DNA of 64,000 bases from NCBI GenBank assembly GCA_041310335.1, contig JBFYXW010000063.1:7079-71078 (forward strand). The letters run 5' to 3'. Shown piece after piece: positions 4,895-47,565 of the stretch. The stretch comes from Syntrophaceae bacterium. Its GTDB lineage: Bacteria; Desulfobacterota; Syntrophia; Syntrophales; PHBD01. A program made the translations under genes and the position numbers. The notes under the pieces were generated by a model that was not told the DNA's origin, did not search any database, and worked only from the letters and a program-made list of their open reading frames with translations. Each line of letters starts with the position of its first letter. Position 1 is the stretch's first letter.

Positions 4895-5809
4895 GTGAAG
4901 ACCCCTGACCCGATCGAGCGGCTGACCTCCGGCGGGACGTTCTCCTTCCGGAGGCTCGACATCACCGGCATCGACAACGAGCCCGTCTTCCGGGTGAACG
5001 ACCCGAGGATGGCACGGGAAGAGACCTGCCTCTTCCACCGGGACACCCCCTCCGGGGACGCCTACGTGCAGCGCCTCGGGAACCGGGTCGCCGAGGCCGT
5101 GGCCCGCCGCATGCCGCTGCCGGTGGTCCGCTTTGCCGACGGCGAGTACGCCTTCTACCACTTCGACCTGGCCTGCAACGGCCTCTACCAGCAGGCCGAG
5201 TCGAAGGCCACCATCCGGGAGGCCCTTCCCATGCACGCGGCGGCCCTCCGGGAACTCGCCCGGACGGGCCTGATCGCCCCCCTCGTCTTCCCCGGCAATG
5301 TCGAAGGGAGAGTCTCCGGCTGGAAGGCCCTCTTCCAGCGCCGCCGCCCCTCGGCGACGACCTTTCTCCGCTGGCTGGAGGAGGCGGACGTCCTCCTGAC
5401 CGGCGAAAACTACGTCCCCTTCTACGCCGTCTACGCCTACTTCTCCTCCGCGTCCTTCGCCCGCCTGATGGACGGCCGCCGCCTGGCCATCCTCAACTCC
5501 GACAGCGACGGCCCCGCCTGCGCCCGCTGGTTCGAGGGGCACGGAAGCCGGCCGCGGATCGAGCTGGTCGAGATCCCCAACAGCTATGTAGCCACCCGCT
5601 GGAACGACATGAAGGAGGACGTCCTGGGCCGGGTCCCACCGGGGATGGACCTGCTTCTCGTGGGGGCGGGCATCGGCGCCCTCCCGGTCTGCGTGGACGT
5701 GGCCCGCCGCTTCGGCATTCCCGTCGTCGACGCGGGGCACGTCCTGAACATGATGAACGACCGGGTGGACAAGTCCAACGGGGCGAGGCTGTACACATTG
5801 TGGAAATAA
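4895..5809 (+). CDS. Hypothetical protein, possibly a GT-D/DUF1792-like glycosyltransferase
   Basis: GTG start with GGAAGGA 7 nt upstream, and GC3-rich codon usage. VVRFADGEYAFY resembles the R-x-GDGE motif of DUF1792 (GT-D) enzymes. The functional call is weak. Confidence 0.45.
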   Translation: MKTPDPIERLTSGGTFSFRRLDITGIDNEPVFRVNDPRMAREETCLFHRDTPSGDAYVQRLGNRVAEAVARRMPLPVVRFADGEYAFYHFDLACNGLYQQAESKATIREALPMHAAALRELARTGLIAPLVFPGNVEGRVSGWKALFQRRRPSATTFLRWLEEADVLLTGENYVPFYAVYAYFSSASFARLMDGRRLAILNSDSDGPACARWFEGHGSRPRIELVEIPNSYVATRWNDMKEDVLGRVPPGMDLLLVGAGIGALPVCVDVARRFGIPVVDAGHVLNMMNDRVDKSNGARLYTLWK

Positions 5810-5861
5810 TGGATCAAACCGGGTTGCTTCGCTCGATTCCACCGCCGGGGCGGACCGGGGG

Positions 5862-5988
5862 CGGGGGCTGTCACGGGGGTTCCCGCCGTCGCGGAGACTT
5901 TTCCGCGGAGCGCAGGGCACAATCGAATGTCCATCCGGATGGAAAAGTCTCCCAATTGCTCCTCTGGGAACCCCCGGCCGCGCCCCCG
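5862..5988 (+). repeat. Copy A of a roughly 125-bp structured intergenic repeat (partner at 22780..22907, minus)
   Basis: By-eye alignment to the reverse complement of 22780..22907. The shared 5' block is CGGGGGCTGTCACGGGGG. There is a 12-bp stem (GGAGACTTTTCC 5893-5904 with GGAAAAGTCTCC 5941-5952). The shared 3' block is GATGGAAA.G..TCCCAAT....C.TCTGG.AACCCCCG.CCGCGCC.CCG. The element ends about 50 nt before the ATG at 6041. Confidence 0.7.
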
Positions 5989-6040
5989 CGGGTATCCCCG
6001 ATAATCCAGTCCCGATGATCCAGGCCGGCGGAGGCCACCC

Positions 6041-7219
6041 ATGACCGACCCCTACCGGACACTCAGAAACCGCCTCTGGCGGTGGCGGAACGACCGGCGG
6101 CTTGTCCGGGAGGCGGAGGAGTACTCTGCCCGCTTTGCCAGCCTGGGCCTGAGGGTCCCCGACGAATCCGAACTCCGCAGGACCTTCGAGGATCGCTTCC
6201 CGGGTCTCCGGCCGCAACCGAAGGGCTCCCTCCACATCCTCGCCGTCTACCGGAACTTCAACTGGGAGGACGAAGCCCTGACTCCGTCGCTGGCCGCCTT
6301 CGGGCCGGTCCACCGCTACGACTGGTCGGGCCGGTTCGATGCGGCGGGCGACGCCTGGCACGGAGGCGTGAAGGCCGCCATGAACCGGGACCTCCTCGCC
6401 TGGATCGGGGAGAGGCGGCAGGCCGGAGAGGCCGACGCGATCTTTTTCTACCTGTCGGGCGGGCAGGTCTTTCCCGAGACGATGGAAGCCGTTTCCCGCC
6501 TGGGCATCCCCACCGTCAACCTGGCCCTCAATGACAAGGAGGGCTTCGTCGGGCGGATCCGGGGCGGCCGGGCCGAGGGCAACCGGGACATCTGCCGCTG
6601 GATCGACCTCTCGTGGACGAGCACCGCCGACGCCCCGGTCAAATACTGCGTCGAGGGGGGACGGCCGATCTATCTGCCTGAAGGGGCAACCCCCTCCGTT
6701 CACCATCCCTGCGAGGCAGAAAAGACCATCGACGTCTCCTTCGTCGGCCAGCGCTACGGGAACCGGCCCGCCGTCGTCGACCACCTGCGGCGGCAGGGCA
6801 TCGCCGTGGAGGCCTTCGGCCCCGGCTGGCCCGCGGGGCCGCTGCCGGTGGAGGAAATGGTGAAGCTGTACTCCCGGAGCCGGATCAACCTCGGTTTCGG
6901 GGGCGTCGTGGGCCACACGGACACGTTCTGCCTGAAAGGCCGGGACTTCGAGATTCCCCTGAGCGGCGGGCTTTACCTGACGGAAGATCACCCGGAACTC
7001 TCCCGGGCTTACGAGATCGGGCGGGAAATCGTCACCTGGAAAAGCCTGGACGACCTGACGGAAAAGGTCCGCCATCTCCTGGCCCACCCGGAGGAGGCGG
7101 AGGAGATCCGGCGCCGGGGCTTCGCTCGGGCCCGGCGCGACCACACCTGGGAACGGCGCCTCGACAGGGTGTTTTCGCTCCTGGGAGTCCTGGATGCGAA
7201 GGAGGAAGGAAAGTCATGA
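6041..7219 (+). CDS. CgeB-family / DUF3880-type glycosyltransferase-like protein
   Basis: 392 aa. The C-terminal region SRINLGFGG...KGRDFEIPLSGGLYLTEDHPEL...EEIRRRGFARARRDHTWERRL matches the CgeB / Glyco_trans_1_2 pattern I know. Confidence 0.65.
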   Translation: MTDPYRTLRNRLWRWRNDRRLVREAEEYSARFASLGLRVPDESELRRTFEDRFPGLRPQPKGSLHILAVYRNFNWEDEALTPSLAAFGPVHRYDWSGRFDAAGDAWHGGVKAAMNRDLLAWIGERRQAGEADAIFFYLSGGQVFPETMEAVSRLGIPTVNLALNDKEGFVGRIRGGRAEGNRDICRWIDLSWTSTADAPVKYCVEGGRPIYLPEGATPSVHHPCEAEKTIDVSFVGQRYGNRPAVVDHLRRQGIAVEAFGPGWPAGPLPVEEMVKLYSRSRINLGFGGVVGHTDTFCLKGRDFEIPLSGGLYLTEDHPELSRAYEIGREIVTWKSLDDLTEKVRHLLAHPEEAEEIRRRGFARARRDHTWERRLDRVFSLLGVLDAKEEGKS

Positions 7220-11912: not shown

Positions 11913-13538
11913 TCAGGATGTCAGGGTCATCTTTCCCTCGGCGTACATCTGTCGAAGGTCCCGCTTGCTGAACTTTCCGACGCTCGTCTTGGGGATCGCC
12001 TCGACGAAGGCGAACTGCCGGGGAATCCACCAGTCGGCCTTGACCCTGTCCTTGAGGAAATCCCGGATCTCCTCCACCGTCAGCGTCTCCCCGGGCTTGA
12101 CAACGAGGCAGCCCAGGGGCCGCTCCGACCACTTCTCGTCGGGGATCCCGATGACCGCCGCCTCCAACACCTTCGGGTGGGCCATGATGAGATTCTCCAG
12201 GTCCACCGAGGAGATCCACTCTCCGCCGCTCTTGACGAGGTCCTTCGTCCGGTCCACCAGGCGGACATAACCCTCCGAATCGATGGTCCCCACGTCCCCC
12301 GTGTGGAGCCAGCCATCGGCAAAGACGGGGGCCGACCGCTCGGGATCCTTGTAGTACTCCTTCGCGATCCAGGGGCCCCGGAGCAGGATCTCCCCCCAGG
12401 ACTTGCCGTCGGCGGGGACGTCCCGGCCCCGCTCGTCGACGATCCGCATCTCCAGCCCCGGCACGAGGAGGCCGGCACTGGACTTGACGTCATACATCTC
12501 CTGCTGCGACAGCCCCTCCATGTAGCTCTTCGGGATCGCCGCCAGGACCAGCGGCGTCGTTTCCGTCATGCCGTAGGCCTGGTGGATCGGGAAGCCGTAC
12601 TTCTCGTTGAGTCCCTCCATGAGGAACCGGGGACAGGCGGACCCGCCGGAGAAGATGCCCTTGAGGGAGGAGAAGTCGTGCCACCCCCCGGCCTCGAGGT
12701 ACTGGTAGAGCATCATCCAGATGGTGGGAACGCCGGCGGTGAAGGTGACCTTCTCCTCGGCGATGGCCCGGCAGATCCTCTCCATGTTCAGGAGCTCCCG
12801 CCCGGGGAGGACCTGCTTGCACGCCAGGGCCATGCAGGCGAAGGGCACGCCCCAGGCGTTGGCGTGGAACATGGGCACGACGTGGAGGCAGCAGTCGCTC
12901 TCCAGGGTGCCGAGGGTGCAGCAGGCCGCGTAGGTGTGCATCACGAGGCCCCGGTGGCTGTAGACGACCCCCTTGGGGTCCCCCGTCGTGGCGGAGGTGT
13001 AGCAGATGAGCGCCGGGTCCCACTCGGAGAGGTCCCGCGGCCAGTCGTACTCCGTGGGGAAGGGGGCGATGAGGTCGTCGTAGAGGGTGACGGGGCTGAG
13101 GGACGTCTGGGGCATCTTCCCCGTCTGGGAGAGGATCACGTAGTGCTTCACCGTCGTGAGCTGGTCCTTCACCAGTTCCAGGAAGAAGACCAGGTCCTCG
13201 TCCACGAAGACCACCTGGTCCTCCGCGTGGTTGAGGATGTAGGCCAGGTGGTGCGAGGGCAGCCGGAAGTTGACGGTGTGCAGGGCCGCCCCCATGCAGG
13301 GAACGCCGAAATACAGCTCCAGGTGGCGGTGGCTGTTGAGGGCCACGCTGGCCACGCGGTCGCCCCGCTTCACCCCGAGTGATTTCAGGGCGTGGGCAAG
13401 CTGACAGGTCCGCCGGTAGTAATCTCCGTAGGTGTAGCGGAAGACCTGGTCGGGATAGATGGAGACAATCTCTTTTTTCGGGAAAAACTTCGCCGCCCGG
13501 GTCAGGAACGGCGTCAGCAGGAGCGGGTAGTCCATCAT
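11913..13538 (-). CDS. AMP-dependent acyl-CoA synthetase (medium/long-chain fatty-acid--CoA ligase family)
   Basis: AMP-binding signature YTSATTGDPKGVVYSH, plus GMTETTP, GWLHTGDVG and a C-terminal SVGKFSKRDLR. Start trimmed to MMDYPLLL (ATG 13538, with GGAGGA 7 nt upstream). Confidence 0.85.
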   Translation of the reverse strand: MMDYPLLLTPFLTRAAKFFPKKEIVSIYPDQVFRYTYGDYYRRTCQLAHALKSLGVKRGDRVASVALNSHRHLELYFGVPCMGAALHTVNFRLPSHHLAYILNHAEDQVVFVDEDLVFFLELVKDQLTTVKHYVILSQTGKMPQTSLSPVTLYDDLIAPFPTEYDWPRDLSEWDPALICYTSATTGDPKGVVYSHRGLVMHTYAACCTLGTLESDCCLHVVPMFHANAWGVPFACMALACKQVLPGRELLNMERICRAIAEEKVTFTAGVPTIWMMLYQYLEAGGWHDFSSLKGIFSGGSACPRFLMEGLNEKYGFPIHQAYGMTETTPLVLAAIPKSYMEGLSQQEMYDVKSSAGLLVPGLEMRIVDERGRDVPADGKSWGEILLRGPWIAKEYYKDPERSAPVFADGWLHTGDVGTIDSEGYVRLVDRTKDLVKSGGEWISSVDLENLIMAHPKVLEAAVIGIPDEKWSERPLGCLVVKPGETLTVEEIRDFLKDRVKADWWIPRQFAFVEAIPKTSVGKFSKRDLRQMYAEGKMTLTS

Positions 13539-13617
13539 GGCGTCGTCCTCCATAAACTGTGAAATGGGACGGCCGGGGGCCGCCCTCGGGTTGGCCCCCG
13601 GCTCCGTCACGTCGTTG

Positions 13618-15288
13618 TCAGGGCGCGCCCAGTTTCTGCTTGATGTCCTCCCGCAGGACCTTCTTCAGGATCTTCCCCACGGGGTTGCGCGGAATGGCGT
13701 CGATGACCTCCAGGCGTTCGGGGATCTTGTAGACCGCCAGTCCCTTCTCGTTCATGTAGGCCTTGATCTCCTCCAGGTTCACTGTCTCGCCCGGCTTCGG
13801 CACCACGTAGATGCAGGTCTTCTCTCCCAGGGCCTCGTCGGGCATGGCCACCGCGGCGGCGTCGAGGACCTTCGGGAAGCCCAGGACCATGTTCTCCACC
13901 TCCTGGGCGCTGATGTTGTAGCCGCCCCGGATGATGATGTCCTTCGAACGCTCGAAGAAGCCGATGCACTCGTTGTCCTTCAGCTGGAAGAGGTCGCCGG
14001 TGTTGAAGTACCCCTCGGCGTCGAAGGCCTTGGCCGTCAGGTCGGGCCGCTTGAAGTAGCCGGGGATCACGTTGGGGCCCCGGTACCAGAGCTCGCCGAC
14101 CTCCCCCTCTTTCTTCGGGCCCCCGGGGATGGCGGCGTTCACCAGCTTCATGGAAACATGCTTGGACATCATGGTCCCCGTCCGGGTCCACTTGCTTCCC
14201 GGGCCGTTGAAGAGGAAATGGTCCAGGCGCATGGCCATGTCGGGAATGTCGTAGCCGCTGGCCACGTTGGCCGTCCCCTCGTTCTGGCCCCAGATGTTGG
14301 CGAAGTCGATGCCCCAGCGGCGCCGGAGCTCCTCGACGGACCACAGGGAGGGCGGGGCGGCGCCGATGGTGATGGCCCTCATCTTGCTGAAGTCGAACTT
14401 GTCCACCATGGGGTGCTTCAAGAGAGCGTTCACCACCGCCGGCACGAGCAGCGTGTAGTGGATCTCCTCCGCCATGAGCTGCATGACGAAGGTGGGGCCG
14501 TCGAAGGGGTGGTGGAGGACCAGTTTCCCGCCGCCAATGAGCCACGGGATATACACCGTCCCGATGGAGGCCATGTTGACCAGCGGCCCCGCCGTGATGA
14601 GGTTGTCCCCCCAAGAGATGGGGGCCATCTCGAAGCACAGGTTCCCCTGGCAGATCCAGTTGTTGTGGGAGAGCGGACAGCCCTTGGGCTCCGCCTCCGT
14701 CCCGGAAGACCAGGAGAGGGTGAAGACGTCGTTGGCATCGACGACGATGCCGTCGAGCTTTCCCGTCACGGGCCCCTGAGACATCTCCCGGATCTCCGGC
14801 AGGTAGAGGATCTCCCGGATGGAGGCCTGCTTCGCCTTGACCTTCTCTGCCAGTTCCTTGTGGTTGAAGTTCCCGAAGGACTCGACGGTGAGGATGGCCT
14901 TCGCCTCCGTCAACCCCGCGATGTATTCCAGTTCCGAGGCCCGCCACTGCATGGGCATGGGGGAGATGAGGCCGCCCATGCGCGAAACGGCGAGGTAGAG
15001 CATGGCCAGCTCCCAGGTGTTGGGGAGCTGTACCATGAAGATGTCGTCCTTCCCGAATCCCTTCGCCAGGAGCCCCTCCGCGACGGCGTCGGCGGCCCGG
15101 GCGAGTTCCGCGTAGGTCAGCTTCTCCTGCTTCAGGCCCACCAGGGCCTCCTTGTTCATGGGGTCCACGAGGCAGACCTTGTCGGGCTGCTTGCGGACAT
15201 GGAAGCGGAAATAGTCGAGCAGCGTCTTCTTGCCCCAGGCCCCCGCCTCGGTCCAGCGGCGAATCGTTTCCGGTGATGCCAGGATCAT
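13618..15288 (-). CDS. AMP-dependent acyl-CoA synthetase/ligase (class I adenylate-forming)
   Basis: SWSSGTEAEPKGCPLSH (AMP-binding), YFNTGDLF, RSKDIIIRGGYNISAQEVE and PVGKILKKVLRE. Confidence 0.85.
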   Translation of the reverse strand: MILASPETIRRWTEAGAWGKKTLLDYFRFHVRKQPDKVCLVDPMNKEALVGLKQEKLTYAELARAADAVAEGLLAKGFGKDDIFMVQLPNTWELAMLYLAVSRMGGLISPMPMQWRASELEYIAGLTEAKAILTVESFGNFNHKELAEKVKAKQASIREILYLPEIREMSQGPVTGKLDGIVVDANDVFTLSWSSGTEAEPKGCPLSHNNWICQGNLCFEMAPISWGDNLITAGPLVNMASIGTVYIPWLIGGGKLVLHHPFDGPTFVMQLMAEEIHYTLLVPAVVNALLKHPMVDKFDFSKMRAITIGAAPPSLWSVEELRRRWGIDFANIWGQNEGTANVASGYDIPDMAMRLDHFLFNGPGSKWTRTGTMMSKHVSMKLVNAAIPGGPKKEGEVGELWYRGPNVIPGYFKRPDLTAKAFDAEGYFNTGDLFQLKDNECIGFFERSKDIIIRGGYNISAQEVENMVLGFPKVLDAAAVAMPDEALGEKTCIYVVPKPGETVNLEEIKAYMNEKGLAVYKIPERLEVIDAIPRNPVGKILKKVLREDIKQKLGAP

Positions 15289-15366
15289 CGTTTCCTCCTT
15301 CTTTTCTTCCGGTTGGGCCGACCCCGGCCGGGGCCGGCGGATGCGTTCACGGGCCGCGGCCGTCCC

Positions 15367-17025
15367 TCAACCCTTCCCCTGTTTCTTCATCTCCAGGTCC
15401 CGGAGCTCCCGCCGCAGGATCTTTCCCACGGCGCTTTTCGGGAGGGCGTCCAGGAACTCCACGATCTTCGGGATCTTGTAGGCCGCCAGGGTCTGCCGGC
15501 AGAAGGACGTCACCTCTTCTTCCGTCAGGGTTTGCCCCGGCTTGGCCACCACGAAGGTCTTCACCGTCTCCCCGCGGTAGGCGTCGGGAATCCCGATGGT
15601 GCACACCTCGAGCACCTTCGGGTGCGTCATGAGGAGCTCGTCGATCTCCTTGGGATAGATATTGAAGCCGCTGGCGAGGATCATGTCCTTCTTCCGGTCC
15701 ACGATGGTGACGTAGCCGTCCTCGTCCATGACCCCGATGTCACCGGTGTAGAGCCAGCCGTCGATCAGGACTTTCGCCGTCTCTTCCGGGTTCTTGTAGT
15801 ACCCCATCATGACCTGGGGCCCCTTGAAGCAGATTTCGCCGGACTCCCCCTGCTTCACTTCCGTCTTCCCCGTCTCGAGATCCACGATCTTCAGGTCCGT
15901 GTTGGGGAAGGGGATCCCGACGGTGCCGGGCTTCTCGTCGCCGCCCCAGGGCGTCGCCGTCCCCATGGGGGTGATCTCCGTGAGGCCGTAGATGTTCACC
16001 AGGGGAACGTTCCGCCGCTCCTTGAGCATCTTGATGGTCTCCACCGCCATGGGGGCCGAACCGGTCAGGTAGGCCTTCACAAAGGAGAGGTCCATCTTCT
16101 GGAACCGCTCGGAATGGAGGAGCGCCACGAAAATCGTGGAGACGCCCGGGAGAAACGTGGGCTTGAACTTCTCCAGGAGGTCCAGGATCCGGTCCGGCTC
16201 CGGCCGCGGGACAAGAATGTCCGTCCAGCCGGCGTAGATGGACGTATTCTGGAGCCCCGTCCAGCCGGCGGCGTGGAAGAAGGGGAAGATGGCCAGCGTC
16301 CGCTCTTCTCCGTCCTTGGAGTCGACGAACCAGACCCGGAACTGCTGGGTGTTGAAAGAGATGTTGGCGTGGCTCAGCATGACCCCCTTGCTGAGTCCCG
16401 TCGTGCCGCCCGTGTAGATCAAGGCCCCCAGGTCCTCCAAGGCCGCCTCGTTCGGAACCGGGTCGTCCGGCTGGGGACCGATGAGGTCCATGAATTTGTG
16501 GACCCCCTCCGCGGGCGGAACGTCGGCGGGCGGAAAGAACGGCTTGAGCGGCTCCGGGAGGTAGTCCGCGAGGCCGCAGAGGATGGCTTTCTTCGCCCCC
16601 GTGCTTTGCTGGAGCTTCCGGGCCACCGGGTGGAACAGGTCGAGGGTGACCATCACGGTGGACTCGGAGTCGTTCAGCTGGTGCGCCAGCTCGTGCTCCG
16701 TGTAGAGGGGGTTGTTCATGACGTTGACCGCCCCGATGCGGAACGCCGCGTACTCGGCGATGACGATCTGGGGGATGTTGGGAAGGATCATGGACACCTT
16801 GTCGCCTTTTTTGACCCCCAGGGCGAGCAGGGCCCGGGCGAACCGGTTGACCAGGCCTTCCAGTTGCCGGTAGGTGATGACGGTGCCGAAATAGATGAGT
16901 GCGGGGTTGTCGGGAAACCGCGAGGCTGAACGCGTCAGGGCCTCGGGCATGGTGATCCGGTCGAAGTCCATCTCCGCCGGGATGCCGGGTGGATAGTTCT
17001 TGTGCCAGATCCGCTGGAAAGACAT
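15367..17025 (-). CDS. Long-chain-fatty-acid--CoA ligase (FadD-like)
   Basis: MSFQRIWHKNYPPGIP N-terminus typical of FadD, plus IYTGGTTGLSKGVMLSH, YGLTEITP, GWLYTGDIG and SAVGKILRRELR. Confidence 0.85.
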   Translation of the reverse strand: MSFQRIWHKNYPPGIPAEMDFDRITMPEALTRSASRFPDNPALIYFGTVITYRQLEGLVNRFARALLALGVKKGDKVSMILPNIPQIVIAEYAAFRIGAVNVMNNPLYTEHELAHQLNDSESTVMVTLDLFHPVARKLQQSTGAKKAILCGLADYLPEPLKPFFPPADVPPAEGVHKFMDLIGPQPDDPVPNEAALEDLGALIYTGGTTGLSKGVMLSHANISFNTQQFRVWFVDSKDGEERTLAIFPFFHAAGWTGLQNTSIYAGWTDILVPRPEPDRILDLLEKFKPTFLPGVSTIFVALLHSERFQKMDLSFVKAYLTGSAPMAVETIKMLKERRNVPLVNIYGLTEITPMGTATPWGGDEKPGTVGIPFPNTDLKIVDLETGKTEVKQGESGEICFKGPQVMMGYYKNPEETAKVLIDGWLYTGDIGVMDEDGYVTIVDRKKDMILASGFNIYPKEIDELLMTHPKVLEVCTIGIPDAYRGETVKTFVVAKPGQTLTEEEVTSFCRQTLAAYKIPKIVEFLDALPKSAVGKILRRELRDLEMKKQGKG

Positions 17026-22661: not shown

Positions 22662-22705
22662 TCCATCCGACAGTTCCATCCGTTGATTCCATCGAACGAT
22701 GGAAT
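22662..22705. promoter_or_regulatory. Putative TetR operator: inverted repeat ATTCCATCG-AA-CGATGGAAT plus two direct TCCATCCG half-sites
   Basis: The 9-N2-9 inverted repeat lies at 22686-22705. Additional half-sites TCCATCCG lie at 22662-22669 and 22675-22682. The IR overlaps the -10 and the predicted +1 of the tetR promoter. Confidence 0.6.
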
Positions 22706-22732
22706 TCTAGCGGGTAACATCCCTCCTGTCAA
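22704..22732 (-). promoter_or_regulatory. Sigma-70 promoter of tetR (TTGACA-N17-TAGAAT)
   Basis: Minus strand: TTGACA (22732-22727), an exactly 17-nt spacer, then TAGAAT (22709-22704), about 50 nt upstream of ATG 22653. Confidence 0.65.
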
Positions 22733-22779
22733 GAGGGAAATCTGTAGAAGTCCCACACCTCAGAAGAGCATTGCAATCT

Positions 22780-22907
22780 CGGAGGCGCGGTCGGGGGTTG
22801 CCAGAGGGATCATTGGGAAGCATTTCCATCTCTGCGGCGCCTCGGCTCATGAGCGGCGGACCGCGGAAAAGCTGCCGCGACCGGCGGCCCCCCCGTGACA
22901 GCCCCCG
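22780..22907 (-). repeat. Copy B of the roughly 125-bp structured intergenic repeat (partner at 5862..5988, plus)
   Basis: The reverse complement aligns by eye with 5862..5988 at about 85% over the 5' 47 nt and about 78% over the 3' 51 nt, with an unalignable loop of about 30 nt between. The stem arms are GGCAGCTTTTCC (22876-22865) and GGAAATGCTTCC (22827-22816). The element lies just upstream of the tetR promoter, in the same orientation as tetR. Confidence 0.7.
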
Positions 22908-22934
22908 TGCCCGGAACGGTGTTGATTGTCCGTC

Positions 22935-22962
22935 TTGACGAAGAGGGAGAACATGGTAAAAT
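22935..22962 (+). promoter_or_regulatory. Putative sigma-70 promoter (TTGACG-N16-TAAAAT)
   Basis: TTGACG at 22935-22940, a 16-nt spacer, then TAAAAT at 22957-22962. It is about 200 nt upstream of the PagL-like gene, so the linkage is uncertain. Confidence 0.35.
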
Positions 22963-23163
22963 GCCCTGAATCGGAAACTCCAAGCCTCCCGCCTCCCCGC
23001 AAGGACAAGGGCGCGGGAACCCTTCGCATCAAATGTCCATCGGCCTGCCGGCGTGCATTCCTCCGGCGGCTGCGGTTTTTCGACCTGACCGACTGTTCAA
23101 AACCCCTTATCCTTTTTGAACGACCGCCCGGGCAATCCGGGCCTTCCGGGGAGGAATCGCCTC

Positions 23164-23763
23164 ATGAAGACGCAACATCGAAAGGCCCTCCAGGCGACGA
23201 TCACGGTGCTTGTCCTGGCCGTCTTCACCACGCCGATTCCCGCAGCGGCGGACACAAGGGGAGACTGGGCCGTCACGGCCTACGGCGCCGTCCAGACCCA
23301 CAGCGACCTCTGGGAAATGTTCCACAACCCCGATTTCGAAAACAATTACCACTTCCTGGCCGTGGCGCTTTCCCGGAGGATCCACTCCCTGTCTCGGCAC
23401 CTCGACCTGGAGGTCGAGGGCCAGGCGGTCAAGCACTTCGGAGACCAGAACCACTGGGAGTTCAACGCGCTCCTCGCGCTCCGGTGGAACACCTTTCCCT
23501 GGGACTCCTACCTCGACACGAGCTTCGCCTTCGGCAACGGCCTCTCCTACGCCACCCGGACGCCCAGGATCGAGGAGGTCCAGCACGAGAAGACCCACGC
23601 GTTCCTGGACTACATGCTCTTCGAACTGGCGCTCTCCCTCCCGCAGGAACCAAGGTGGAGTCTGGTCTGGCGGATTCACCACCGGTCGGGCGCCTTCGGC
23701 CTTTTCAACGGCGTGCGCGGGGCCTCCAACGCCCTGGGCATGGGCTTGAAATATCATTTCTAG
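23164..23763 (+). CDS. Outer-membrane beta-barrel protein, PagL / acyloxyacyl-hydrolase-like (lipid A deacylase family)
   Basis: Signal peptide MKTQHRKALQATITVLVLAVFTTPIPAAA. Alternating beta-strand pattern and an OMP-type C-terminus GLKYHF. RIHHRSGAFG resembles the H-x-S catalytic motif of PagL (IHYSNAG). Start trimmed to ATG 23164. Confidence 0.5.
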   Translation: MKTQHRKALQATITVLVLAVFTTPIPAAADTRGDWAVTAYGAVQTHSDLWEMFHNPDFENNYHFLAVALSRRIHSLSRHLDLEVEGQAVKHFGDQNHWEFNALLALRWNTFPWDSYLDTSFAFGNGLSYATRTPRIEEVQHEKTHAFLDYMLFELALSLPQEPRWSLVWRIHHRSGAFGLFNGVRGASNALGMGLKYHF

Positions 23764-23873: not shown

Positions 23874-24893
23874 TCAGCGGGACGCCGTTTCGACGAACAG
23901 GGGGAGGAAGACGGCCAGGTCCTCCACGATCCCGTACCGGGCCACCCGGAAAATGGGCGCCGCTGGATCCCGGTTGACGGCGACGATGCAGCGGGAGCCC
24001 TTCATCCCGGCCAGGTGCTGGGACGCTCCGGAGATCCCGCAGGCCAGGTAGAGGTCCGGCGCCACGGTCCGGCCCGTCAGGCCCACCTGGTGCCGGTACC
24101 CGAGCCACCCCTGGTCGCAGACGGGACGGGACGCCCCCACGGCGGCGTTCCGGAACAGGCCGGCCAGGCGCCGGATCCACTTCAGATTTTCCTCCCCGCC
24201 GATCCCCCGGCCAGCTGCGACGATGACGTCCGCCTCCTCCAGGTCCATCCCCTCCCGCTCCCCCAGCCTCTCCCCGCGCAGCGTGATTCTCTTCCGCCCC
24301 GGGGCGGCCTCGCGCAGCAAAACGGCAGCGGCCATGCCTCCCGGATCGGACGCGACCGCGGCGGATTCCTCCTCACCGGGGCCGGTGAAGCCGGGCAGAA
24401 CGGTCAGGACCGCGCAGGGCGTTGCCGGCTCGACCTCCATCCGCATGCGCCCCCGGCAGACGGAGCGCAGGAAGGTCCACCGGCCGTCGCGGAAGGCGGA
24501 CTCCTCCACGGCGGTGATGCAGGCCGCCCCGAGACGGACCGCCAGGGCGGGTGCCAGGTCGGCCCCCCTCGTGTCATGGGCCAGGACGACATGGACGGGA
24601 TCGATATCCCGGATGAGGGAGGCAAGGGCCAGAACGGCGTCTTCTCCGCAGGACGGGTCGGCGTCTCCCCCCCGGAGGGCAAGCACGGCCAGCCCGGTCC
24701 GGGCGGAGACTTCCTGGGCTGCCGCTTCCGGGTCGGCGCCGCAGAGTGCGACGGCGGCGCGCCCGCCCGCTCCTCTCTCCAGAAACCGGGCCGCGGCGGC
24801 GGCCTCGAATGTTGCCGGGAGGATGCCGGTTTCGTCGCACCAGCCGACGGCCACACTCGTAAATACGTTCAGGGGAATGCAATCGTCAGCCAT
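23874..24893 (-). CDS. etfA: Electron transfer flavoprotein, alpha subunit (no adjacent beta subunit)
   Basis: C-terminal FAD-binding block [15 protein letters not shown]...[11 protein letters not shown]...[47 protein letters not shown]. Confidence 0.85.
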
Positions 24894-47477: not shown

Positions 47478-47565
47478 TGGTGCCGAAGCCGGGATTTGAA
47501 CCCGGACAGGCCTACGCCCACTAGACCCTGAACCTAGCGCGTCTACCAAATTCCGCCACTTCGGC
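47478..47565 (-). tRNA. tRNA-Leu (anticodon CAG), type II with a long variable arm and an encoded CCA
   Basis: Minus-strand sequence: GCCGAAGTGGCGGAATTTGGTAGACGCGCTAGGTTCAGGGTCTAGTGGGCGTAGGCCTGTCCGGGTTCAAATCCCGGCTTCGGCACCA. Acceptor is GCCGAAG/CTTCGGC. The anticodon arm is CTAGG-TTCAGGG-TCTAG. The T-arm is CCGGG-TTCAAAT-CCCGG. 88 nt. Confidence 0.92.

Follow-up and report, generated by a model that had tools for sequence, protein, structure and literature searches.

Repetitive extragenic palindromic (REP) sequences can be arranged as doublets that form hairpins, called REPINs, and these are mobilised by RAYT transposases. The enterobacterial repetitive intergenic consensus (ERIC) is an imperfect palindrome of ~127 bp, which is intergenic, occurs in either orientation, is often transcribed and can form stem-loops in the mRNA. 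ERIC/IRU and the repeats resembling miniature inverted-repeat transposable elements (MITEs), such as Correia, RUP, BOX and RPE, are reviewed by Delihas (PMC2229807). REPs are 20-40 bp long, with stems of 5-13 bp, loops of 2-20 nt and a terminal GTAG or CGTC tag, and the CGTC families have stems of 8-9 bp and loops of 4-5 nt (PMC3733652). Tandem clusters of REPINs in which the flanks are repeated as well have also been described (PMC3116915). Here, a structured repeat named E is described from a stretch of 64,000 nucleotides of a Syntrophaceae bacterium (contig JBFYXW010000063.1), referred to below as the window. E is closest in form to REPINs and to the ERIC-like 127-bp palindromes, and its two copies in the window, A and B, are probably two members of a dispersed family of palindromes of the REPIN/MITE kind, extragenic and non-autonomous.

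Both copies had been noticed from the letters of the window alone (the original prediction), at 5862-5988 and, inverted, at 22780-22907. The positions hold, and the extent is slightly wider when the boundaries are set by information content. The parts of the two copies are the following.

5858-5990, + strand: copy A of E, complete, delimited by sequence and flank information content; covariance model match at 5852-5994 with 143.3 bits
5862-5884, + strand: 5′ arm of copy A, the invariant 18-mer CGGGGGCTGTCACGGGGG followed by TTCCC
5893-5904, + strand: 5′ strand of the inner helix P3 of copy A, GGAGACTTTTCC, 12/12 complementary to 5941-5952
5905-5940, + strand: variable apical region of copy A, unalignable between subfamilies, with structure no better than shuffles
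5941-5952, + strand: 3′ strand of P3 of copy A, GGAAAAGTCTCC, pairing with 5893-5904
5953-5990, + strand: 3′ arm of copy A, CAATTGCTCCTCTGGGAACCCCCGGCCGCGCCCCCGCG, with the invariant CCTCTGG and the strands pairing with the 5′ arm
22778-22911, - strand: copy B of E, complete, by sequence; covariance model match at 22774-22917 with 114.6 bits
22890-22907, - strand: invariant 18-mer of copy B, an exact match to CGGGGGCTGTCACGGGGG

The 18-mer is identical at 5862-5879 (+) and 22890-22907 (-), and these are its sole matches in the window at up to 3 mismatches. The covariance model of the family scores copy A at 143 bits (E ~1e-25) and copy B at 115 bits (E ~5e-20), and no third full copy is found in the 64 kb by the model, by pattern or by repeat search. 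Aligned with MAFFT, copy A and the reverse complement of copy B show 81% mean column identity over 168 columns, with ~20 nt of flanking sequence counted at either end; when only the element columns of the family alignment are compared, their identity is 69%. Copy A has a predicted fold of -77 kcal/mol (z = -2.8). Copy B is the most degraded full copy found, with two mismatches in P3 and an end of CCTCCGAG, and its minimum-energy fold does not stand out from shuffles (z = +0.5). Its arms GGCAGCTTTTCC (22876-22865) and GGAAATGCTTCC (22827-22816) are paired at 10/12, and the stem arms of both copies are as originally described.

The information content of the flanks places the boundaries of E at GGCG/CGGGGGC...GCCCCCG/CG, which gives a length of ~133 bp. 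The element is an imperfect palindrome with conserved inverted arms, GGCGCGGGGGCTGYCACGGGGGYTYCC at the 5′ side and GGRAACCCCCGGYCGCGCCCCCGCG at the 3′ side. Its terminal inverted repeats, 5′ CGCGGGGGC and 3′ GCCCCCGCG, extend into these arms. In the consensus fold, an outer helix pairs CGGGGGC with GCCCCCG, a second helix pairs CGGGGG-YTCC with GGRA-CCCCCG, and the sequence of an inner helix of 10-14 bp drifts with the pairing kept. In copy A, the 5′ arm forms the helices P1 (5862-5871) and P2 (5874-5884) with the 3′ arm, around a conserved unpaired CTGTCA. Two asymmetric internal loops are conserved: CTGYCA facing GGYCGC, and GCCGTCGC facing a 13-nt strand with the invariant CCTCTGG. Whereas the helices drift, the motifs CTGYCA, CCGTCGCGG and CCTCTGG hardly vary. 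Subfamilies have different sequences in the apical ~35-40 nt, whose folding relative to shuffles (median z -0.34 in 75 copies) agrees with the free loop originally proposed and speaks against a structured apex. In other copies, a second repeat, M2, has inserted into this region.

The original prediction had read the compensatory changes between A and B as a sign of a selected structure rather than a decayed gene. This structural claim is strongly supported, and much better by the family than two copies could show. In 75 distinct copies, 98.7% of the cells in the proposed pairs are paired, versus 92.5% in shuffles. Double substitutions are present in 10 of 30 pairs (159 cells), a level reached in 0 of 500 shuffles, and seven of these ten pairs belong to the P3 columns. 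When the 3′ partners are slid by 1-3 columns, the pairing is 36-63%. The two adjacent double substitutions between A and B (G-C to A-T and A-T to G-C) are reproduced, and the columns concerned are the two with the strongest covariation among all copies aligned. The outer CGGGGG/CCCCCG pairing, with its G.U pair in B, is recovered as well. In addition, the lengths of the T-run and the A-run of the inner helix change jointly, from 4 to 7. With the covariance model, the reverse strand scores only 30-45 bits, compared with 114-155 bits for the reported strand.

A separate linkage is observed in the first internal loop. Column 21 of alignment A4 (CTG[T/C]CAC) is coupled to the 3′-arm GG[C/T]CGC, such that T goes with C and C goes with T almost without exceptions. 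The linked bases face each other in the loop and can form no standard pair, and both linked types are present in one genome, PHBD01. Such coupling may reflect subfamily linkage or a non-canonical contact.

The family comprises at least 81 full-length copies of 126-130 nt, found in four GTDB Syntrophaceae-type metagenome-assembled genomes (MAGs), a fifth relative and large metagenome contigs. The covariance model was built from 27 full-length copies that were extracted and aligned, and the compensatory pairs reappear in the wider alignment. The exact 18-mer occurs at 61 loci in GTDB (one genome per species), 34 of them, many at contig ends and frequently more than one in the same assembly, in four related MAGs: CAZODI01, CAYNEJ01, CAZXMK01 and PHBD01, which represent three "uncultured Syntrophaceae" and HGW-Deltaproteobacteria-19. 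At the remaining loci, the 18-mer is not accompanied by the other parts of E, and these matches are due to chance or to simple repeats. In metagenome contigs, a two-block pattern retrieves 46 loci, including 11 on one contig of 1.31 Mb and 5-6 on contigs of 0.6-0.7 Mb, and the metagenome loci gave 53 further full copies. With the strict pattern, the density on large contigs is fairly even, at ~8-10 per Mb. The GTDB representatives do not include the genome of the window itself, whose nearest sampled relative, GCA_013177825.1, is 80-88% identical to it at the nucleotide level in syntenic genes.

Outside this group, the element is not matched in viral contigs or plasmids, nor by blastn (word size 11) in 5,426 E. 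coli genomes (20,395 records). The Rfam search proposed earlier to identify it gave no match to Rfam 15 at the gathering threshold in the window and 17 loci, or at E <=10 on 5780-6060. Literature searches gave no account of repeats or MITEs for Syntrophaceae or Syntrophus, and this lineage has thus far been without descriptions of repeat families. The family is confined to a clade of high-GC, uncultured bacteria of the Syntrophaceae type. Two single contigs with full copies are placed in MAGs that are labelled as unrelated phyla, LUYO01000116.1 (L041, a 'Rhodobacterales' MAG) and JBFZER010000206.1 (L043, a 'Spirochaetota' MAG). The element of L041 and its flanks are closely similar to locus L058 of HGW-Deltaproteobacteria-19, and both contigs are probably binning contamination. 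Assemblies break at the element: short-read contigs with the orthologous glycosyltransferase end at the repeat, and a Logan contig of 1.3 kb with an exact protein match stops inside the 3′ arm, 79 nt before the ATG.

The history of the family can be followed by comparing copies and loci. Pairs of 97.7-100% identity are located at different loci with different flanks within the same genome or contig, and the median identity within a genome is 72-77%. These values give the impression of an old family that has diversified and has also duplicated recently. No target-site duplication was detected for k = 2, 3, 4, 5, 6 or 8 at any flank offset, in comparison with permuted pairs. At orthologous sites, the element is variable. 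The gap orthologous to that of copy A is 672 nt long in L063; here, the orthologous position is occupied by a broken long form, and an intact E from a different subfamily and other repeats are present as well. In L113, with a glycosyltransferase of 59% identity, the gap is 84 nt and no E is present in 24 kb. The locus of copy B is represented by L115 (TetR 98% identical), where the copy is without its 5′ 48 nt, and by L118 (TetR 87% identical), where only ~25 nt of the 3′ end are left. The divergent promoters and a palindromic operator-like site are kept in both.

The copies also form tandem and mosaic clusters with two other repeat families. Many are flanked by short fragments of their own ends at similar spacers of ~20 nt, and true tandem pairs are present in L043 and L079. 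An insertion of rolling-circle concatemers was considered for the layout of end fragment, spacer, element, spacer and end fragment and was rejected, as there is no ribozyme and no fixed cleavage point; tandem duplication with deletions explains this layout more simply. The first of the two associated families, M2, has ~125 nt and the inverted ends GGGCTGTTGAAAAAC...GTTTTTGAACAGCCC. Nested in the apical region of E, it produces a long form of ~245 nt, which has itself spread to several loci. M2 also breaks contigs (L012, L030 and L039) and is absent from the window. The second is a long imperfect palindrome of ~190 nt (GGGGAGAGGGGGCTTCCCGGAGCGCGAATAGCGGCTTTTTCGGGGCACCCTGCCGTCGCAGCG...), very often placed directly after E and duplicated with it as a unit; it has no Rfam match and is likewise absent from the window. 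In L063, a composite of E and this second palindrome recurs 9 kb away with 99% identity, between two acyl-CoA synthetase genes, and the window has only a 7-nt gap at that site. The sites of these associated repeats are the following.

L024, 6647-6894, - strand: M2 or long form
L028, 3960-4208, + strand: M2 or long form
L008, 2052-2299, + strand: M2 or long form
L018, 483-603, + strand: M2 or long form
L063, 9380-9560, + strand: M2 or long form
L063, 9722-9910 and 18364-18560: ~190-nt palindrome
L028, 4210-4400: ~190-nt palindrome
3′ flank of ~30 metagenome copies: ~190-nt palindrome

Among the described systems, E shares most with REPINs (PMC3116915). Both are long extragenic hairpins of ~100-130 nt with two conserved inverted arms and a less conserved centre, both occur in tens to hundreds of copies per genome and in several subfamilies, and both show compensatory pairing, no target-site duplication, tandem clusters that include the flanks, and decaying singlets or remnants. 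However, the arms of E, CGCGGGGGCTGYCACGGGGG and CCCCCGGYCGCGCCCCCGCG, are G-runs and C-runs rather than self-complementary short REPs, and they carry no terminal GTAG. Moreover, no RAYT gene flanked by E turned up in the sampled loci, the hosts are Deltaproteobacteria of the Syntrophaceae type, and the sequence is unrelated to the described REPINs. With ERIC, the element shares the ~127-bp class of palindrome, the presence in either orientation and a copy number that varies between related species. It differs in the absence of sequence similarity (by the E. coli blastn) and of a TA or other target duplication, in arms that are far more G+C-rich, and in the conserved asymmetric internal loops.

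The REP/BIME group and the palindromes with GTAG or CGTC tags (PMC3733652) resemble E in being extragenic and palindromic, in forming mosaics with other modules and in their bias to gene 3′ ends. The invariant CCGTCGCGG just 5′ of the inner stem recalls the CGTC tag, although the only CGTC of E is internal and not terminal, and E is far from a REP in having ~133 bp, three helices and an apex of ~35 nt. Terminal inverted repeats are shared with MITEs of the DDE type, whereas the fixed-length target-site duplication of the latter is absent. Integron attC sites are also imperfect palindromes of similar length, with a structure better conserved than the sequence, a variable centre and unpaired bases that define strand identity. 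Unlike attC, E has no RYYYAAC/GTTRRRY cores and is dispersed across the chromosome rather than arranged in cassette arrays of one orientation; no integron integrase was found near E in the loci examined.

The placement of E relative to genes was determined with a self-trained codon-usage gene finder, which reproduces the Pfam-supported genes of the window. The copies are extragenic and the genes adjoining them are unrelated. Of the copies in co-directional gaps, 21 are in sense and 20 in antisense orientation; a further 22 of the 81 copies occupy convergent gaps and 3 divergent gaps. Counted as gaps, E is present in 34 between co-directional genes, 19 between convergent genes and 3 between divergent genes, for which the baseline numbers are 335, 43 and 57. 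Convergent gaps are enriched among the E-bearing gaps (odds ratio 4.7, p = 7e-6), and divergent gaps are depleted when gaps of 60 nt or more are taken as the reference (odds ratio 0.21, p = 0.005). The orientation towards the next gene, proposed as a feature of the repeat, is true of both copies in the window but not of the family. Copy A lies in a gap of 231 nt inside a same-strand run of glycosyltransferase genes. The GT-D-like gene before it has its stop at 5809, and the Glyco_trans_1_2 gene after it has its ATG at 6041, ~50 nt ahead as predicted; both genes are assigned by Pfam. This gap contains neither a promoter-like (sigma-70-like) site nor a terminator-like site on the + strand. Copy B is upstream of the tetR promoter, as had been stated, and sits between two promoter-like sites which face away from it, outside both transcripts. 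These two sites are context and not part of the repeat.

22704-22732, - strand: sigma-70-like promoter of tetR, TTGACA-17-TAGAAT, downstream of copy B and facing away from it
22935-22962, + strand: promoter-like TTGACG-16-TAAAAT with TG, facing away from copy B towards the + open reading frame (ORF) at 23116

The tetR promoter-like site is kept in the relatives L115 and L118, and in the close relative L115 genes are called on the strand of the site at 22935-22962.

In the metagenome lineages, many copies follow a terminator-like hairpin and its T-run at a distance of 20-30 nt. These hairpins share GGGGAgCGGATTTCAAATCCGcTCCCC and the T-run, followed by a semi-conserved CTTCGCATCnnGGCG just before the element (L075 at 1615-1645 and 2258-2290; upstream flanks of L082, L086, L089, L101, L106 and L112). 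The shared sequence suggests a further repeat or a preferred landing site; it has no match in the window.

E is thus a multi-copy, extragenic and orientation-independent element whose structure is conserved with covariation and which leaves no target-site duplication. Recent duplicates within genomes, differences in presence and absence, and decay at orthologous sites accompany these properties. The copies are many and lie in both orientations, as a plain REP or MITE would, but the covariation is retained. Of the three candidates originally offered, a cis-regulatory RNA, a small RNA gene and a REP-like element specific to the genome or lineage, only the last survives. As members of a family of hairpins dispersed through intergenic DNA, the copies have the look of selfish repeated DNA and not of a switch for neighbouring genes.

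The probable identity of E as a non-autonomous mobile palindrome suggests the following course of events. In single-stranded or extruded DNA, a trans-acting enzyme would use the long hairpin as its substrate, recognising it at the DNA level and copying or moving it without making a target-site duplication. The best precedent for such an enzyme would be a HUH/Y1 transposase of the RAYT/TIRYT type, to which the long hairpin together with the missing target duplication points. Only copies with intact arms and an intact hairpin would propagate, which may be why the arms are invariant and the helices change in a compensatory manner. As the hairpin and the arms would serve the propagation machinery, the covariation needs no function in neighbouring genes. 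New copies would persist mainly downstream of genes and be purged from promoter regions, and old copies would suffer deletion, be hit by other repeats or be amplified locally into tandem and mosaic clusters. Effects on flanking genes, such as that of the copy A hairpin of about -77 kcal/mol in an intercistronic mRNA, would be incidental.

Several observations weigh against this interpretation. In the ~0.9 Mb of E-bearing loci and in the window, tblastn with RAYT and IS608 TnpA queries found no such gene, which is a weak test, as RAYT-type genes are single-copy; a Y1 transposase was picked up with the IS608 query in an unrelated locus. The only gene between E ends within 700 nt in the sampled loci is ArgJ-like. 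No pair of filled and empty sites with exact junctions was obtained, and recombination or gene conversion may account for the spread in place of transposition. The clusters, with their end fragments and ~20-nt spacers, could have arisen from local tandem duplication or recombination. The near-invariance of CTGYCA and CCTCTGG across at least 8 genomes could equally reflect binding by a host protein. Finally, G.U exceeds A.C on the reported strand by 100:7, or by 13:6 when two polymorphic columns are left out, which hints at a strand-specific, possibly RNA, fold but is no more than suggestive of strand asymmetry. Recombination or gene conversion may have spread the element, a host protein may bind the invariant loops, and sense copies may have incidental or exploited effects as mRNA hairpins; some of these may coexist.

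The G.U excess leads to the alternative of an RNA hairpin exploited by the host. Such a co-transcribed 3′ or intercistronic stem-loop, similar to that of ERIC or REP, would block exonucleases, act as a processing site or attenuate read-through, and in this way tune neighbouring cistrons, e.g., the two glycosyltransferase genes around copy A. This account, which is compatible with a selfish origin, draws on the enrichment of copies downstream of genes, in convergent and co-directional gaps, and on the stable predicted fold of copy A in a gene run that has no promoter-like or terminator-like site in the gap. Half of the co-directional copies are antisense, however, and in these the asymmetric loops would read differently. 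The many copies that follow a terminator-like hairpin with a T-run would be poorly transcribed, and copy B is outside both flanking transcripts. Orthologous copies decay, the operon of copy A exists without the element, and E has no U-tract of its own. This alternative is considered unlikely.

The same terminator-associated copies have a place in a more speculative reading, to which only a small probability is given. In this Syntrophaceae clade, E may be more than a passenger of the RAYT type, namely the substrate of an unrecognised hairpin-specific recombinase or nuclease, or a domesticated hairpin bound by protein. The invariant internal loops, CTGYCA/GGYCGC and CCGTCGC/CCTCTGG-strand, would then be a recognition code, the zone just downstream of terminators would be a preferred landing zone, and E with the co-clustering repeats would form a modular system by which the ends of transcription units are shaped.

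The internal-loop motifs could also be the recognition elements of a protein-binding DNA site with a chromosomal role, such as the binding of gyrase or IHF known from bacterial interspersed mosaic elements (BIMEs) and REPs, or an insulator between convergent units. The constancy of CTGYCA, CCGTCGCGG and CCTCTGG beside drifting helices would fit such a role, as would the enrichment in convergent gaps and the fairly even density along large contigs. On the other hand, the element is decayed or absent at orthologous sites and missing from 24 kb in distant relatives, the subfamilies with recent duplicates indicate propagation and not a fixed architecture, and no candidate protein was identified, which leaves this explanation doubtful. 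A multi-copy family of small RNA genes, each copy transcribed on its own, is highly improbable. The conserved covarying structure, the constant length of 126-130 nt and the strand difference in covariance score would be expected of it. Nevertheless, there is no conserved promoter upstream of the copies (less than 0.5 bit per position from -40 to -9) and no sigma-70-like site at copy A, neither an intrinsic terminator nor a T-run follows the 3′ end of the element, tandem copies stand only ~20 nt apart, orthologous copies decay, and Rfam is silent even at E <=10. A cis-regulatory leader of the riboswitch or attenuator type, for which the orientation of both window copies and the ~50 nt from copy A to the ATG could speak, is already refuted by the distribution: the genes downstream of the 81 copies are unrelated and form no consistent family, half of the co-directional copies are antisense, divergent, promoter-bearing regions make up 3 of 56 E-bearing gaps, copy B lies upstream of the tetR promoter and not in the tetR leader, and relatives lose the element while keeping tetR and its operator.

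Two further candidates were discarded at the level of motifs. The bases of a hammerhead core (CUGAAUG...GAAAC) are not conserved (copy A has CCAAUUG), a stem II is missing, and Rfam gives no match. A sigma-54 promoter on the reverse strand of the 5′ arm (TGGCAG-N5-GCGC) is confined to the C-type subfamily and is without TTGC.

The repeat nature of E has practical consequences for the analysis of these genomes. Segments of this type should be masked as repeats and not taken as candidate riboswitches or small RNAs, and they explain the breaks of short-read assemblies at such sites in these organisms. The repeats could serve as markers for strain typing or binning. E also shows, with good resolution, how a long DNA hairpin evolves by compensatory changes in an uncultured lineage of anaerobic syntrophs, and its invariant internal loops, together with the absent target duplication, offer a concrete handle on the enzyme that would move it.

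Some features of the surroundings were recorded as well. A perfect palindrome, ATTCCATCG-TT-CGATGGAAT, at 22686-22705 (-) lies across the -10 of the tetR promoter-like site; the two aligned relatives keep it, with a few substitutions in L118, and it is a likely TetR operator. The annotated start of TetR is 13 codons after the start of a longer ORF in the window, and the product of this longer ORF has no exact match on record. Between copy B and the gene of electron transfer flavoprotein alpha (ETF-alpha), overlapping long ORFs are present on both strands at 23116-23763 (given for the + strand) and have no Pfam match. In a close relative, this region is ~350 nt longer and carries two genes on the strand opposite to tetR. 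An inverted repeat of 34 nt, 85% complementary, connects 6220-6253 in the glycosyltransferase gene with 23970-24003 in the ETF-alpha gene; it is not collinear with the copies of E and is probably due to chance. The only Rfam match in the window is a tRNA of 85 nt with a long variable arm at 47481-47565 (-), with 51 bits. Three tandem paralogous AMP-binding (acyl-CoA synthetase-like) genes at 11913-17025 (-) account for the direct-repeat families D1 and D9, and the same trio is found in L063, where two of its members are split by the repeat cluster.

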